Source: an uncultured Enterobacteriaceae bacterium (GTDB lineage: Bacteria > Desulfobacterota > Binatia > Bin18). Taken from it: a stretch of DNA of 64,000 bases. A model generated the notes under the pieces. It did not search any database. It was not told the DNA's origin and saw nothing but the letters and a program-made list of their open reading frames with translations. Of the stretch, positions 2,501 to 33,774 are shown piece by piece; positions within the stretch are counted from its first letter, which is position 1, and each line of letters begins with the position of its first letter. The position numbers were made by a program, and so were the translations under genes. The stretch lies in assembly GCA_964441775.1 (NCBI GenBank), contig CAYTVL010000005.1:160395-224394 (forward strand), in the 5' to 3' direction.

Positions 2501-2577
2501 CGGGGTGTGGCTCAGCCTGGTAGAGCACACGGTTCGGGACCGTGGGGTCGCTGGTTCGAATCCAGTCACCCCGACCA
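2501..2577 (+). tRNA. tRNA-Pro (anticodon CGG)
   Basis: Cloverleaf read by eye: acceptor CGGGGTG/CACCCCG, D-arm GCTC..GAGC, anticodon stem CACGG/CCGTG with loop TTCGGGA (anticodon CGG), T-arm GCTGG-TTCGAAT-CCAGT, discriminator A and encoded CCA. Confidence 0.9.
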
Positions 2578-19218: not shown

Positions 19219-19575
19219 TTACTTCATCGATCGCACGACCAACCAGGCCACGCCGTCAACCATCACAAACGTAAGAAGGACGCTAGCAACGCCAATGATC
19301 TCATAGGTGGTCATGAGCTTTCCTCCAGTTTGGAGCAGAGCATCCGCTCTCCGGTGAGCGAGAAAGAGCAGGGTCACAAAGGCTCCTTCGAGCCTCACAC
19401 CGGCAGTGAACGCGATGAGCTTGGCTCGGCTATCTAGAGTTGAAACCAAGCCGATGATTCCACTGCCATTCAAAAGTATGGTAGCCCACAGAAGGCGAAT
19501 CCAGTCCATGTAATAGTGGATTCGCTCTTTCGCGCCCTCAACGGAAGCCGCCCTACTTCGCGCGCGGAAGCTCAT
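19219..19575 (-). CDS. small hydrophobic membrane protein (hypothetical), translationally coupled to leuB (TAATG overlap)
   Basis: Three predicted TM segments. Its ATG overlaps the leuB TAA by one nucleotide. Alternative start at M42 (19509). Confidence 0.35.
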   Translation of the reverse strand: MSFRARSRAASVEGAKERIHYYMDWIRLLWATILLNGSGIIGLVSTLDSRAKLIAFTAGVRLEGAFVTLLFLAHRRADALLQTGGKLMTTYEIIGVASVLLTFVMVDGVAWLVVRSMK

Positions 19576-20654
19576 TACTGGAGTTTCTCTCGCACCAGCT
19601 TGCCCATCTCCGTGCAACTCACAAGACGGCATTCCGGCTGAGCAATGTCGCCGGTGCGATAGCCGCTCGCCAGCACGTCATCGACCGCCTTCTCGATCGC
19701 CGCCGCCGCGTCTTCTTGGTTGAAAGAAAGACGGAGCATGAGCGCGGTCGAAAGAATCGCTGCGAGAGGATTGGCTTTATTTTGTCCAGCAATATCCGGC
19801 GCCGTGCCGTGGATCGGTTCGTACAGTCCCCGTTTGCCGTCCCCCAATGATGCTGACGGCAGCATGCCCATTGATCCGGCCAGCATGGACGCTTCGTCAG
19901 TGAGAATATCGCCAAACATATTTTCAGCGGCAATCACATCGAAATCCTTTGGGCGACGGATGAGGTGCATCGACATCGCGTCAACCAAAACATCTTCATA
20001 TTGTACATCGGGATATTCTTTCGCCACCTCGTGCGCCACTTCCCGCCACATGCGCGAGGTCGCCATGATGTTGGCTTTGTCAACCGAGGTGAGCTTCTTG
20101 CGTCGCTTCCGCGCCAGTTCAAATGAGGCGCGCATGAGACGCGCCACTTCGCCTTCGGTATAGAAGATCGTATCGACCGCCTCGCGCCCCGCAGCGCCAG
20201 TGCGACGCTCACTAGGTCTGCCATAGTACACACCGCCGGTCAGTTCGCGTACGACAATCAGGTCAACACCGTCTAGCACTTCCGGTTTGAGCGTCGAAGA
20301 ATTGAGTAAATGACGGCTCACCTGAATGGGCCGCAAATTGGCGAAAAGCCCCAGCTCTTTGCGCAGCCCCAAGATCGCCTGTTCAGGTCGCACGGTCGAT
20401 TTGGGGTCGTCCCACTTGGGGCCACCCACCGCGCCCAGCAGCACGGCGTCGCTCTGTTGCGCCACGCGCAGCGCCGAGTCCGTCAGCGCCACGCCATGCG
20501 CATCAATCGAGCATCCACCTGCCAAAGCCTCTTCACAAGTAAAACTCAGGCCAAAGCGTTTCTCGACGACGTTGAGCGCCGCGAGCGCTTCTTTCATCAC
20601 TTCTGGACCAATGCCGTCTCCGGCAAACACTGCAACTTTGTGGGTCATCGTCAT
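19575..20654 (-). CDS. leuB: 3-isopropylmalate dehydrogenase
   Basis: [15 protein letters not shown]-terminus, NLRP, and GSMGM...DEA... isocitrate/isopropylmalate-DH family motifs; 359 aa. Confidence 0.95.
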
Positions 20655-20785: not shown

Positions 20786-22339
20786 TTAGGGCCCTTCGCG
20801 ATGGAGCCCAGCTTGCTGGCCGTATTGCTCACGATGCGCGAGCTTATTCAAGGCGTTGATCAGCGCAAGCGCGCTGGCCATGATGATGTCGGTGTGCGAG
20901 CCTTGCCCGTTCACGGACATGCCGTTCTCGCGGACCATGCAGGTCACTTCGCCCTGCGCATCGGTGCCGCCAGTAATCGACTTGACCGCGTAACGCTCCA
21001 ATTTGGGCTCGATGCCAGCGATCTTCAAAATCGCTTTATAACAAGCGTCCACCATACCATCGCCGGACGCATTCGCCATGAATTCTTGGCCATCAACTTT
21101 CAGTTTGACCGTGGCATAGGGCGTGCCCATGCTGGACGACGTGACGTTGAGATACGCCAGTTCATACTTGTCGGACATACGCGTGGCCTCTTCGGTCACG
21201 ATAGCAATCAGATCTTCATCGTAGACATTTTTCTTTTTGTCGGCGAGTTCCTTGAAACGATCGAACGCCTTGTTCATGTCCGTGCCCGTGAAGTCAATAC
21301 CAAGATGCTTTAAGCGGTCCACAAAAGCGTGCCGACCGGAGTGTTTGCCGAGGACCAGTTTGTTGCTGTCGATCCCCACATCTTGCGGCTGCATGATTTC
21401 GTAGGTCAATTTATACTTTAAGACGCCATCTTGATGGATGCCCGCCTCATGGGCAAACGCATTGGCCCCGACGATCGGCTTGTTTTGCGGCACGCTGAGA
21501 CCGGTGATCTGCGACAGGAGCTGACTGGAAGGATAGATCTGCTCACTGCGAATGTTCGTCCGCACATGCGCAAACACATCTTCGCGCGTTCGCAGCGCCA
21601 TCACGACTTCTTCCATCGATGTATTGCCGGCGCGTTCGCCGATGCCGTTGATGGTGCACTCAACCTGGCGCACGCCGTTCTCAATGGCCGCCAGCGAATT
21701 AGCCACGGCCATGCCCAAGTCATTATGACAATGAGCACTCCACGTTACCTTGTCGCCCCCAGGAGTCTGTTCGCGCAACTTCCGAAACATGGCGCCATAC
21801 TGATGCGGCAGCGCATAGCCCACCGTGTCAGGGGCGTTAATCGTCACCGCGCCGGCTTTGATCGCCTCACCGAAAATCTGTGTGAGATACGCAAAGTCGG
21901 TGCGCGACGCATCTTCGGCGGAGAATTCTATATAGTCAACGTATTTCTTGGCAAGACTTATGGCCCATACAGCGGCGTCTAACGCTTCTTGACGGCTCAT
22001 CATCAGCTTGTGTTTCAGGTGGATATCCGACGTCGCAATAAAGATATGCACGCCAGGATGTTTGGCTTTTTCCACGGCTTTCACGGCGCGCGTCACATCC
22101 AGTTCCTTCGTGCGCGCGAGGCTCAAGACAATGGGGAAGGACACGGTTTCGGCGACGCGCCGAACGGACTCGAAGTCGCCATCGGACGAAGCCGCAAACC
22201 CCGCTTCGATGATATCCACGTTGAGTTTCTCAAGCTGCCGGGCGATCAACAGCTTTTCTTCCACGTTCATGGTCGCGCCCGGTGATTGTTCTCCGTCGCG
22301 CAACGTAGTGTCGAAAATCTTCACAACTTCCCGTTCCAT
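20786..22339 (-). CDS. leuA: 2-isopropylmalate synthase
   Basis: LRDGEQ motif, HxH metal site (HCHNDLG), and C-terminal LeuA dimerisation/regulatory domain. The ATG at 22339 has an AAGGAGG SD 7 nt upstream. Confidence 0.95.
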   Translation of the reverse strand: MEREVVKIFDTTLRDGEQSPGATMNVEEKLLIARQLEKLNVDIIEAGFAASSDGDFESVRRVAETVSFPIVLSLARTKELDVTRAVKAVEKAKHPGVHIFIATSDIHLKHKLMMSRQEALDAAVWAISLAKKYVDYIEFSAEDASRTDFAYLTQIFGEAIKAGAVTINAPDTVGYALPHQYGAMFRKLREQTPGGDKVTWSAHCHNDLGMAVANSLAAIENGVRQVECTINGIGERAGNTSMEEVVMALRTREDVFAHVRTNIRSEQIYPSSQLLSQITGLSVPQNKPIVGANAFAHEAGIHQDGVLKYKLTYEIMQPQDVGIDSNKLVLGKHSGRHAFVDRLKHLGIDFTGTDMNKAFDRFKELADKKKNVYDEDLIAIVTEEATRMSDKYELAYLNVTSSSMGTPYATVKLKVDGQEFMANASGDGMVDACYKAILKIAGIEPKLERYAVKSITGGTDAQGEVTCMVRENGMSVNGQGSHTDIIMASALALINALNKLAHREQYGQQAGLHREGP

Positions 22340-22373
22340 AACAAACCTCCTTGCAAATTCACAAAACAAAAAA

Positions 22374-22397
22374 GGGTTGCGAGATCGCCCGCAACCC
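22374..22397 (-). terminator. intrinsic terminator/attenuator hairpin 2 (GGGUUGCG-N8-CGCAACCC + UUUUUUGUUUUGU on the minus strand), ending ~20 nt upstream of the leuA SD
   Basis: Perfect 8-bp GC-rich stem followed by a U-run, read on the minus strand. Confidence 0.6.
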
Positions 22398-22412
22398 TTT
22401 TACAAAGAAAAA

Positions 22413-22444
22413 GGGCCACGAGCTGTTGGTCCCGCCCGTGGCCC
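22413..22444 (-). terminator. intrinsic terminator/attenuator hairpin 1 (GGGCCACG-N16-CGUGGCCC + UUUUUCUUUGU on the minus strand)
   Basis: Perfect 8-bp stem followed by a U-run. Tandem with hairpin 2, between pssA and leuA. Confidence 0.6.
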
Positions 22445-22461
22445 TTGGAAGTTTCGCGTTG

Positions 22462-22563
22462 TTACGCGTTCCCCTCGGACCCTCTAGGCGGGGTGGTAAG
22501 CAGCAGGCCTAGCAGCAGACCGGCGAGCCCCAATAGTAGTCCGAGAGCAACTGCGTGTGTCAT
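22462..22563 (-). CDS. candidate leucine-operon leader peptide (33 aa, MTHAVALGLLLGLAGLLLGLLLTTPPRGSEGNA)
   Basis: ATG 10 nt after the pssA stop with an AAGGG SD-like sequence 7 nt upstream; 11 Leu codons including three LLL triplets; followed 18 nt later by two terminator-like hairpins and then leuA. Could equally be a chance hydrophobic frame. Confidence 0.3.
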   Translation of the reverse strand: MTHAVALGLLLGLAGLLLGLLLTTPPRGSEGNA

Positions 22564-22572
22564 TGCTAGCCC

Positions 22573-23382
22573 TTATAACGAACTTTCTTCCTCGGTGTCA
22601 AGTGAGCGCAGCGAATGAGGGACATCGATGACGTCGCTGAGGTCAGCGTGCTCATCCATTTCGCCTCTCCGAAAGAACCGCATCAGCGCCCAGACAGGAC
22701 CAGACATAGTGTACAGTGAAAAGATGCTGAACAGCATAATTTGCGGCTCAGCAATCGTCAGTTGGATCACGACAATCCCTAACAGCAGCGTCCATAATGG
22801 CTGGCGATTGTAGAAATGAATTTCTTTAAAACTGTAATAGGGAATGCCGCTGACCATGAGTCCAGCCAGTAGATAAATGAGCAAAAGCAGCGTGATGTGC
22901 TTATGTGTGGCGCCTTCTCCACCCATGAAAAAATACATGAGTATCGTCGTCGCCACGACCGCGGCGGCGGCAGGGATAGGAAGACCGACAAAATTCATCT
23001 TGCTAATCGTACCAACCTGCACGTTGAAACGCGCCAAACGGAGCGCCCCGCAGATGACATAGAGCGAAGCGGCAAGCCAGCCCCAGGCGCCCCAGGGCTC
23101 CAGCGCCCAGCGATAGGCGAGGGCTCCCGGCGCGACGCCGAACGCGATCACATCAGACAGCGAGTCGTATTCCACGCCAAACTGACTAGAAGTCTTCGTC
23201 AAGCGAGCAATCCGCCCATCGAGCGCGTCAAACACCTGCGCTACGAGAATAGCGACCGCTGCTAGCAAATAATCCTCTTTAATCGTCGCCACGACGGAGA
23301 AGAAACCGCAAAATAGACCACCGGACGTCACAAGGTTAGGGAGAATGTAAACACCTTTGCGCATTTGCATCGGCGTCGGCAT
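22573..23382 (-). CDS. pssA: CDP-diacylglycerol--serine O-phosphatidyltransferase (CDP-alcohol phosphatidyltransferase family)
   Basis: CDP-OH-PT motif DALDGRIAR...G...D..SD..AFG. Start taken at the ATG at 23382 (AGGA upstream); the ORF-track TTG start at 23442 would overlap psd by 29 nt. Confidence 0.8.
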   Translation of the reverse strand: MPTPMQMRKGVYILPNLVTSGGLFCGFFSVVATIKEDYLLAAVAILVAQVFDALDGRIARLTKTSSQFGVEYDSLSDVIAFGVAPGALAYRWALEPWGAWGWLAASLYVICGALRLARFNVQVGTISKMNFVGLPIPAAAAVVATTILMYFFMGGEGATHKHITLLLLIYLLAGLMVSGIPYYSFKEIHFYNRQPLWTLLLGIVVIQLTIAEPQIMLFSIFSLYTMSGPVWALMRFFRRGEMDEHADLSDVIDVPHSLRSLDTEEESSL

Positions 23383-23413
23383 TTTTTTCCGTCCTGGGAG
23401 GACACGAAATTTT

Positions 23414-24058
23414 CTACGCAATGGAGCCATGAAACTTACCAATGACCGTTTCTCCAGCCTTTACGCGCTGGCCAACCTGAACCCTGACTTCGATCTCTGG
23501 GGCGCAGTAAATATCCACACGGGACCCTAACATAATCATACCGTAACGATCGCCGCGCTGCACCCGTTCCCCTCCTTTGAGGGCGCATACGATGCGACGC
23601 GCTAGGATGCCGGCCACTTGTACCATCACCACTCGGCGTCCTTTGTCATCTTGGAGAGTCACGGCGTTTTGTTCGTTCACCTCAGTCGCGTCAGCCGCAA
23701 AAGCCGGGCGAAATTGACCAAGGTGATATTGTACGGCAGTCACCTGGCCGGCGATGGGCGCGCGATTCACATGCACATCGAGCGGCGACATAAAAATGCC
23801 GACGCGCGTCACCGACGCCGAGAGGAACCGATTGTCCTGAAAGTGCTTTTCGATGGTGACAACTTTCCCGTCTGCCGGAGCAACGAGGCAATCCTCTTCT
23901 TCTGGAGCGTACCGTTCCGGATCACGAAAGAAGTACGCGACAAACAGCGTGATGAGAAAGAGAAGAAAGCCGAGGGTCGGAAAGCCAAAGAGATTCAGGA
24001 GAAGGGCGACGACGGCGAGACCGAGGATGCGAGAGTGGCCTGCAGGAGCAAAGCGCAT
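23414..24058 (-). CDS. psd: phosphatidylserine decarboxylase family protein (short, archaeal-type proenzyme)
   Basis: N-terminal TM segments plus a C-terminal G-S-R/T self-cleavage-type motif (MLGSRVD); ~214 aa. Located between ilvC and pssA. Confidence 0.75.
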   Translation of the reverse strand: MRFAPAGHSRILGLAVVALLLNLFGFPTLGFLLFLITLFVAYFFRDPERYAPEEEDCLVAPADGKVVTIEKHFQDNRFLSASVTRVGIFMSPLDVHVNRAPIAGQVTAVQYHLGQFRPAFAADATEVNEQNAVTLQDDKGRRVVMVQVAGILARRIVCALKGGERVQRGDRYGMIMLGSRVDIYCAPEIEVRVQVGQRVKAGETVIGKFHGSIA

Positions 24059-24126: not shown

Positions 24127-25697
<1,571 letters not shown>

Positions 25698-25793
25698 GAG
25701 TCCTCAAGAGCAGTGTGGGGCGGATCACAGTGAGAAAAAAAGCGCCCTTCACCGCCCCCACGAGACCCGTTGCTGTTCAGGAACGCAATTTTC

Positions 25794-26024
25794 TCAGGCT
25801 GCCGCCTGACGATACCGAGCAAGGATCTCCATCATCCGATCCCTGCCCGCCAATTTTTGTTTCTGGATACGTTTCTGTTCAAATTCTTCTTCTTCGGTGA
25901 GGTGGGATTTTTGTCTCAGCCCTTCCAGTTGCCGTTTGAGCTCCACGTGTTCTTCGTAGTACCAACGCAATTCAGGGTTGGTGTCAATCAATGAACGAAT
26001 CTGGGCTTCTTCTTTTACATCCAT
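25794..26024 (-). CDS. DUF465 (YdcH-like) small coiled-coil protein
   Basis: IRSLIDTNPELRWYYEEHVELKRQLE pattern of the DUF465 family. Start taken at MDVKEE. Confidence 0.55.
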   Translation of the reverse strand: MDVKEEAQIRSLIDTNPELRWYYEEHVELKRQLEGLRQKSHLTEEEEFEQKRIQKQKLAGRDRMMEILARYRQAAA

Positions 26025-26175
26025 AACGAGAACCTCCCTGATAGAAGAGCAGTCCACCGAATCTACCAAGCCTACCGTGCTTGTCAACGTCAGTGGTTCC
26101 TATCGAAATGAAGATCATTTTCCTCCTGTCGGATACGGGCTCAGGCTTGTGTAACCGAGCCCGGTGTAATCTACA

Positions 26176-33690: not shown

Positions 33691-33774
33691 TGCGAAAGGG
33701 GGGAATCGAACCCCCACGGGTTTTACCCCACAGGATCCTGAATCCTGCGCGTCTACCAATTCCGCCACTTTCGC
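33691..33774 (-). tRNA. tRNA-Leu (anticodon CAG), type II with a long variable arm
   Basis: Acceptor GCGAAAG/CTTTCGC, long D-loop, anticodon stem CAGGA/TCCTG with loop TTCAGGA (anticodon CAG), 14-nt variable arm, T-arm GGGGG-TTCGATT-CCCCC, discriminator A; CCA not encoded. Confidence 0.85.

Follow-up and report, generated by a model that had tools for sequence, protein, structure and literature searches.

The spacer of 233 nucleotides (nt) that separates pssA from leuA in a 64,000-nt stretch of DNA labelled as an uncultured Enterobacteriaceae bacterium (but placed by GTDB in Binatia, an uncultured group that has been little studied; contig CAYTVL010000005.1, positions 160,395 to 224,394; the whole stretch is called the window, and its own numbering is used below) probably functions as a ribosome-mediated leader-peptide transcription attenuator. 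In other words, the supply of charged tRNA-Leu would set the expression of leuA and leuB. The case is computational throughout and is built from a leucine-rich open reading frame (ORF), the terminators behind it, the RNA pairings that compete with these terminators, and the conservation of all of them in related genomes. Translation of the ORF, activity of a promoter located at the end of pssA, and a response of termination to the leucine supply are inferred from it.

The leucine-rich leader and the terminators behind it

The leader ORF, MTHAVALGLLLGLAGLLLGLLLTTPPRGSEGNA, lies on the minus strand (22462..22563, from the ORF list and its translation), as do all other features of the spacer. It consists of 33 codons followed by TAA, and 9 nt separate the pssA stop codon from its ATG at 22563. 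Eleven of the codons specify leucine and include three triplets of mixed Leu codons, namely CTA CTA TTG (22531-22539), CTG CTG CTA (22510-22518), and CTG CTG CTT (22498-22506), the last of which is a near-invariant run. The leader is rich in the pathway's own amino acid, with three Leu-Leu-Leu (LLL) runs directly ahead of leuA-leuB. Rare CTA, which accounts for 6% of the Leu codons in the genes of the window, is used three times in it.

The leader is conserved in frame. A PssA-based scan with one genome per species yielded 35 loci, nearly all labelled Candidatus Binatia. leuA followed pssA in 30 of them, at a spacer length of 206-262 nt, and the mini-ORF, the Leu run, and the hairpins were present in all 30. 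A mini-ORF with an LLL run was found in each of 31 Binatia-type spacers. These ORFs are 25-38 codons long, contain 4-12 Leu, and start 5-31 nt after the pssA stop codon (GTG in a single locus, ATG in the other 30). They fall into nine length classes, every one in frame, and stop at a common aligned site except in locus L001, where the stop codon comes one codon later. The leucine share is 16-38% in the leaders versus 10% in the genes of the window.

Within the Binatia set, the LLL run always ends with an invariant CTT, a minor Leu codon (10% in the genes of the window), and the peptide core reads ...LGLLLGLLL(S/T)(I/T)PP.GSEGG. Variation in the last Leu run, CTN CTN CTT, is confined to third codon positions. 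Because the amino acid is kept while the third positions drift, selection appears to act on the amino acid and not on the RNA in this run. The N-terminal part of the leader varies freely in length and sequence. An alignment of related spacers, proposed as a check in the initial annotation of this DNA, agrees with the attenuator that the annotation had suggested, as the short ORF with its Leu run is kept in relatives while its other codons drift.

The family extends well beyond these genomes. A LeuA-based scan of metagenome contigs added 80 further loci with 67-87% LeuA identity, and 55 of the 80, down to 67% identity, have an LLL-run mini-ORF with the motif GLLL(G)LLL..PP(G/A)A..G. An nhmmer profile of the Binatia leaders matched upstream of leuA in most of the 80 loci, including some without a nearby pssA. 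A covariance model built from the Binatia alignment found one match in the 64-kb window (22365-22523, minus strand) and about 66 loci upstream of leuA. The pairing statistics given below come from a 54-sequence alignment to this model.

Several loci of the scans are of interest in their own right. In L101, L102, and L113 the Leu run reads CTC ATC CTT or CTC GTC CTT (L-I-L or L-V-L), and hairpin 1 (described below) is the sole terminator; these variant leaders may sense two or more of the branched-chain amino acids. In the high-GC loci L027, L028, L030, L031, and L032, pssA is followed by apparent cytochrome oxidase genes and not by leuA, as judged by ORF translations only, and the covariance model found no leader in these five loci. 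The records of L001, L002, L025, and L035 carry labels such as 'Klebsiella pneumoniae', 'uncultured Enterobacteriaceae', and 'Candidatus Methylomirabilota', and their PssA, LeuA, and leader sequences cluster with Candidatus Binatia. They are probably mislabelled or mis-binned metagenome-assembled genomes.

Two intrinsic terminators, each a GC-rich stem followed by a U-run, lie between the leader ORF and leuA. Hairpin 1 (22413..22444) has the form GGGCCACG-N16-CGTGGCCC and is followed by the U-run TTTTTCTTTGT (22402..22412), which is U-rich in all relatives; with the U-run it covers 22444-22402. Its two arms contain segment C (GGGCCACGGGCGGG, 22431-22444) and segment D (CTCGTGGCCC, 22413-22422). 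Hairpin 2 has the form GGGTTGCG-N8-CGCAACCC, followed by TTTTTTGTTTTGT, and can be extended to a 14-bp stem between segment E (AAAAGGGTTGCGGG, 22388-22401) and segment F (CTCGCAACCCTTTT, 22370-22383); its U-run extends to 22361, so that the terminator occupies 22361..22401. The leuA start codon (ATG, 22337-22339) lies 21 nt beyond this U-run, with the ribosome-binding site AAGGAGG (22346-22352) in between, and the two together span 22339..22352. A third, small hairpin, CGCGT-AACA-ACGCG, surrounds the stop codon of the leader (22455..22468). The initial annotation had recognized the 33-codon frame with its 11 leucines and three mixed-codon triplets, as well as the two hairpins with their U-runs, and both are present as it described them. 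It placed hairpin 1 at 18 nt from the leader stop codon, and a recount gives 17 nt.

Hairpin 1 is 99% paired and hairpin 2 is 96% paired across the 54 sequences, both with compensatory changes, and in hairpin 2 these affect 8 of 13 pairs across clades. The stop-codon hairpin also shows a compensatory exchange (GGUGU/ACACC versus CGCGU/ACGCG), yet only 66-74% of its cells are paired. Taken as one structure, the terminator state (stop-codon stem plus hairpins 1 and 2) has 90.2% of its cells paired, compared with 40-56% in slid controls. Pairs that changed on both sides number 23, a figure reached in none of 500 shuffles. Furthermore, the 245-nt leader of the window folds more stably than all 200 of its dinucleotide shuffles (z = -3.9). 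The combination of a conserved Leu-run ORF, a drifting remainder of the peptide, and terminators with compensatory changes bears out the classical leucine attenuator of the initial annotation. Hairpin 1 was found in every member and, with its U-run, is the sole terminator in about eight distant loci. On this comparison of sequences, hairpin 1 appears to be the universal attenuator, and hairpin 2 an added second terminator that is coupled to it by a relay of pairings.

Competing pairings and the position of the ribosome

How would a ribosome on the leader control these terminators? An alternative state is available in which arms of both terminators are paired elsewhere. Its first helix, B:C, joins CCCGCC(U/C)G, which follows closely on the Leu run, with CGGGCGG(G), drawn from the 5' arm and the loop of hairpin 1. 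The 5' strand of this candidate antiterminator (22472..22493) is composed of segment B (CCCCGCCT, 22486-22493), which coincides with the Pro-Pro codons of the leader, and segment B' (GTCCGAGGG, 22472-22480). The second helix, D:E, links the two hairpins, the 3' arm of the first pairing with the 5' arm of the second. In the window it consists of 15 bp between CUCGUGGCCCUUUUU and AAAAGGGUUGCGGG, and the U-run of hairpin 1 pairs with AAAA of segment E. No other alternative pairing in the whole family proved as well conserved as the antiterminator guessed in the initial annotation, ACCCCGCC with GGGCGGGACC.

In the 54 sequences, B:C and D:E together are 96.4% paired, compared with 37-50% in slid controls, and D:E is 99.6% paired within the Binatia set. 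The D:E duplex is also more stable than in shuffled sequences, both in the window (z = -3.9, p = 0.003) and on average over 31 loci (z = -2.4), and B:C is only marginally so (mean z = -1.8). Between clades, segment E changes from GGCCACGG to GGCUGCGG (CCACGG to CUGCGG), and F compensates for the change. Each variant of E also pairs with the invariant CCGUGGC of segment D, by Watson-Crick pairs in one clade and by G-U wobble in the other.

The CCCGCC of segment B is almost invariant in the 54 sequences. Seven changes in the Pro-Pro codons give PS, LP, or PL, and six of the seven preserve the RNA pair (five as wobble pairs, one by compensation). Because the peptide drifts here while the pairing is kept, it is the RNA helix, and not the dipeptide, that appears to be under selection.

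The two states were then compared on growing transcripts, in which the stretch up to 12 nt past the A site of the ribosome was forced to be single-stranded. With the ribosome on the Leu codons and the transcript ending before D, the minimum free energy structure was the long B:C hairpin (window, about -33 kcal/mol; majority type, about -35 kcal/mol). With the ribosome in the same place and the transcript ending before F, it was B:C plus the D:E hairpin. With the ribosome at the stop codon, or with none, it was hairpins 1 and 2. In these computed, masked folds the antiterminator thus appears only with the ribosome on the Leu codons, and the terminator and antiterminator folds, for which the initial annotation had advised such a check, switch with ribosome position.

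These observations suggest the following model. Transcription would start a few bases before the leader ATG, from a promoter in the end of pssA, and probably also reach the leader by read-through from pssA. A ribosome would then translate the 33-codon leader. If Leu-tRNA is scarce, the ribosome would stall on the Leu codons and leave B (CCCCGCCU...GUCCGAGGG) free to pair with C as it emerges. Once B:C has formed, D would be left unpaired and would pair with E, so that neither terminator forms and RNA polymerase enters leuA. If Leu-tRNA is plentiful, the ribosome would run over B to the stop codon, and C:D would form as terminator 1 with its U-run. A polymerase that escapes terminator 1 would meet E:F, which is terminator 2. 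When no ribosome is present, an upstream segment A could hold B, and termination would result again. The candidate for this anti-antiterminator strand is CTCTCGGAC (22539..22547), which would pair with B' in the absence of a ribosome. Its pairing is 96% in eight long-ORF relatives and includes one compensatory pair, but the pairing is clade-specific and weak as evidence.

Some results weigh against the model. In the full-length window transcript the terminator state is the energy minimum, at -71.7 kcal/mol versus -64.2 kcal/mol for the alternative state. Across loci, enforced terminator and alternative states differ by 2-16 kcal/mol, and distant members are nearly isoenergetic (for example, -57.7 kcal/mol for the terminator state and -55.5 kcal/mol for the alternative). 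Because the terminator state is the full-length minimum, the choice of antitermination would have to be kinetic, as in classical attenuators. In addition, B:C is nearly invariant and therefore offers little true covariation, with three singleton double changes. The A:B pairing is not in register between clades; it exists in two clade-specific versions whose counts are no higher than those of controls. Stalling at the final two Leu codons would probably place the ribosome over part of B. On the promoter side, the -10 element described in the next section is poor in high-GC relatives (TAAGCG, TAACGC). Finally, the attenuator-like leaders of leuA and ilvB in Streptomyces coelicolor, which have Leu codons, are reported not to have behaved as classical attenuators when mutated (PMC1262725).

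The embedded promoter, rival explanations, and gene context

A promoter-like sequence is embedded in the end of pssA. A -35-like TTGACA lies inside the last pssA codons (22596..22601). It is followed after 18 nt by a -10-like TATAAG (22572..22577) that contains the TAA stop codon of pssA and ends 8 nt before the leader ATG. An exact copy of TTGACA was found in 55 of the 59 distinct regions upstream of the element, against a background of 0.03 per 140 nt. A hexamer TA.... at a spacer of 17-18 nt occurs in all 54 scored loci, in 41 of which 8-10 nt separate it from the start codon. The -35 element falls within the last pssA codons in the window and in all Binatia loci, and it is found at the same fixed spacing in intergenic DNA without an adjacent pssA. 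An automated promoter scan requires T at the last -10 position and hence missed TATAAG.

Judging from this spacing, the leader very likely has its own promoter, and its mRNA is very likely leaderless or preceded by only 1-3 nt. Read-through from pssA into the leader is possible as well, because no terminator lies between the two. The initial annotation had placed the unit inside an ilvNC-psd-pssA-leuAB transcript. The gene order agrees with that placement, but the unit is probably not only internal, given its own TTGACA promoter. The AAGGG sequence that was read as a Shine-Dalgarno (SD)-like signal is present in the window but is not conserved in relatives, where the -10-like TATAA(G/C) is kept instead. 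The packing of promoter, stop codon, and leader start into about 40 nt of a gene end makes this a compact natural example of such an arrangement.

Among the other explanations, one would keep the switch and replace the sensor. Some factor that binds the conserved RNA (protein, uncharged tRNA, or small ligand) would set it, and the Leu codons would be secondary. The core RNA (CCCGCC, GCCACGGGCGGG) is indeed more conserved than pairing alone demands, and the Streptomyces leaders mentioned above, together with the tRNA-sensing T-box that Geobacter uses at leuA (PMC2700814), provide precedents. Against this, searches at E up to 10 brought no match to the T-box or any other Rfam family. The Leu run is the sole peptide feature retained family-wide, with synonymous drift. 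The distance from the Leu run to B fits a ribosome footprint, and the start codon stands at a fixed distance from the promoter. Such a sensor is unlikely.

An elaboration of the attenuator is comparably doubtful, namely that two extra layers on a leaderless mRNA integrate more than leucine. One layer would be a pause at the nearly invariant Pro-Pro codons (CCG CCY, with Gly or Glu as a frequent next residue), a motif of the type that depends on EF-P; a ribosome pausing there may sit on B and enforce termination. If true, leuA expression would reflect general elongation capacity in addition to Leu-tRNA. The Pro-Pro pause was rejected as a selected feature, since seven sequences have lost the dipeptide and six of these seven changes keep the RNA pair. 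The second layer would be a pairing between the Leu run and the SD region of leuA. In most Binatia loci the last Leu run of the leader with its flank, CCUCCUGC, is perfectly complementary to GCAGGAGG in the ribosome-binding site of leuA, a match that is absent in the window. It is present in L013, L004, L008, L019-L024, and L033 (columns 124-131 versus 304-311 of alignment A1), and the columns involved are invariant. A pairing of the leader CCCGCCU with the AGGAGG of leuA, proposed by RNAalifold, was discounted because none of its columns varies and pairing with an SD sequence can be expected of any C-rich run.

A further explanation is that the mini-ORF serves to make a small hydrophobic (membrane) peptide with a function of its own, has its own terminator, and stands before leuA only incidentally. 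In the window peptide a hydrophobic stretch of 21 residues, AVALGLLLGLAGLLLGLLLTT, would be able to cross a membrane, and the best Pfam match of this peptide is a sub-threshold glycine-zipper at E = 1.6 (E = 0.31 for the peptide of a relative). In most relatives, however, the hydrophobic stretch is limited to about 11 residues (LGLLLGLLLSI), not enough to form a membrane helix. The free variation of the N-terminus also argues against a functional peptide. Furthermore, the C-terminal half is conserved in its nucleotides, and its changes obey RNA pairing and not the needs of the peptide, as the replacement of Pro-Pro by PS, LP, and PL proceeds via wobble-compatible transitions. Three leader peptides compared with Pfam and NCBIfam gave no family match at threshold, and no Leu-leader peptide model at E up to 10. 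A membrane peptide is thus very improbable.

The remaining explanation, raised in the initial annotation, is that the hairpins simply end an ilvNC-psd-pssA transcript as tandem terminators and that the Leu-rich ORF is a hydrophobic frame which arose by chance in GC-rich DNA; it deserves the least credence, for although each hairpin with its U-run resembles a standard intrinsic terminator and the count of terminator-like sites in a 10-kb region is not above that of shuffles, it is in effect excluded because the ORF, Leu run, and hairpins are kept together before leuA, behind their own -35 box, where pssA is not adjacent, and because the roughly 30 nt from the U-run to the leuA start leave no space for a leuA promoter behind the hairpins, and it leaves the frame preserved through nine length classes and the conserved alternative pairings unexplained.

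The attenuator precedes the leucine-specific genes of a cluster whose order on the minus strand, assigned with NCBIfam equivalog models, is ilvN (25146-25697), ilvC (24127-25149), psd (23414-24058), pssA (22573-23442, with its TAA stop codon at 22575-22573), the attenuator element, leuA (20786-22339; NF002086, 743.9 bits, E = 7.9e-224), and leuB (19575-20654; TIGR00169). ilvN and ilvC overlap by 4 nt (25146-25149), and psd and pssA by 29 nt (23414-23442); these overlaps within ilvN-ilvC-psd-pssA are consistent with translational coupling. A 137-aa ORF directly 3' of leuB (19219-19632, minus strand) has no NCBIfam or Pfam match. ilvB is not directly before ilvN. The interval between the EF-G gene and ilvN (25698-26175) holds a 76-aa ORF (25797-26024, minus strand) that has no Pfam match, and a promoter-like TTGACA-16-TAGATT with TG is located at 26087-26060 between EF-G and ilvN. 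A second attenuator sought upstream of ilvN (25695-25800) was not found, as the fold of this region is no better than its shuffles (z = -0.9).

Relation to known regulators of leucine synthesis

The assignment of the element as a new member of the leader-peptide attenuator class, without an Rfam, Pfam, or NCBIfam match, is well supported. Rfam searches of the window at the gathering score, of the spacer at E up to 10, and of 20 relatives without an LLL ORF returned two tRNAs and sub-threshold terminator look-alikes; the two tRNA genes (2501-2574, plus strand; 33691-33774, minus strand) are the only gathering-score matches in the 64-kb window. A literature search found no paper on regulation in Binatia, and no gene regulation appears to have been described so far in this lineage. 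The attenuator changes no principle. With it, a phylum known only from metagenomes (Binatia and their relatives from soil and sediment) gains a cis-regulatory RNA family that is well supported and widely distributed. Rfam has no entry for this family, and the alignment of 54 sequences, together with its covariance model, could seed one and improve the annotation of leuA loci.

The closest functional counterpart is the leu leader of enterobacteria (leuL; RF00512 Leu_leader and Pfam Leu_leader). In E. coli, leuL carries four consecutive Leu codons, three of which are CUA. Both systems have a short ORF with a Leu run that includes rare codons, a GC-rich hairpin with a U-run before leuA, stalling that is thought to favor an antiterminator, and a position at the leucine-specific branch. 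The differences are as follows. RF00512 and the leuL peptide models gave no match here (Rfam at E up to 10). The leaders of the present family contain 4-12 Leu in two or three Gly-separated runs, they are followed by two tandem terminators, and their promoter is embedded in the preceding gene with an mRNA that is probably leaderless.

In layout, the element resembles the his attenuator of Salmonella and E. coli, which consists of six segments that pair either as A:B, C:D, and E:F or as B:C and D:E. In both, the decision of whether B is free is passed via a middle hairpin to the final terminator. However, the C:D hairpin of his lacks a U-run, whereas the middle hairpin here is itself a terminator and in some relatives the sole one. 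The regulatory amino acid and all sequences differ as well.

Other bacteria regulate the same step by different means. The LEU element of actinobacteria also has an upstream ORF before leuA with a run of Leu codons, which is complementary to the SD sequence of leuA. Its description, however, is that of a pseudoknot on a base stem, with no terminator evident and an action that is probably translational (Seliverstov et al. 2005, PMC1262725). The element described here has two clear intrinsic terminators, and the match between the Leu run and the SD sequence is perfect in a subset of the Binatia loci only. This complementarity could nevertheless add a translational layer like that of the LEU element in many relatives. 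In Staphylococcus aureus, branched-chain amino acid synthesis from the ilv-leu operon is reported to be repressed via a leucine-rich attenuator peptide (PMC5794164); the peptide differs from the present leader in that it heads the whole ilv-leu operon, belongs to a Firmicute, and acts together with CodY.

In Geobacter, leuA presumably follows ilvC-psd-pssA as well. A Leu T-box is located 5' of leuA (PMC2700814), so that both systems would use leucine-specific transcription antitermination directly in front of this gene. They differ in the sensor, which in the T-box is the uncharged tRNA on the RNA and not a translating ribosome; the T-box covariance model found no match in the window or in 20 related loci. 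The leucine-specific step of a conserved ilv-psd-pssA-leuA cluster would be governed by a ribosome sensor here and by a tRNA-sensing T-box in Geobacter.

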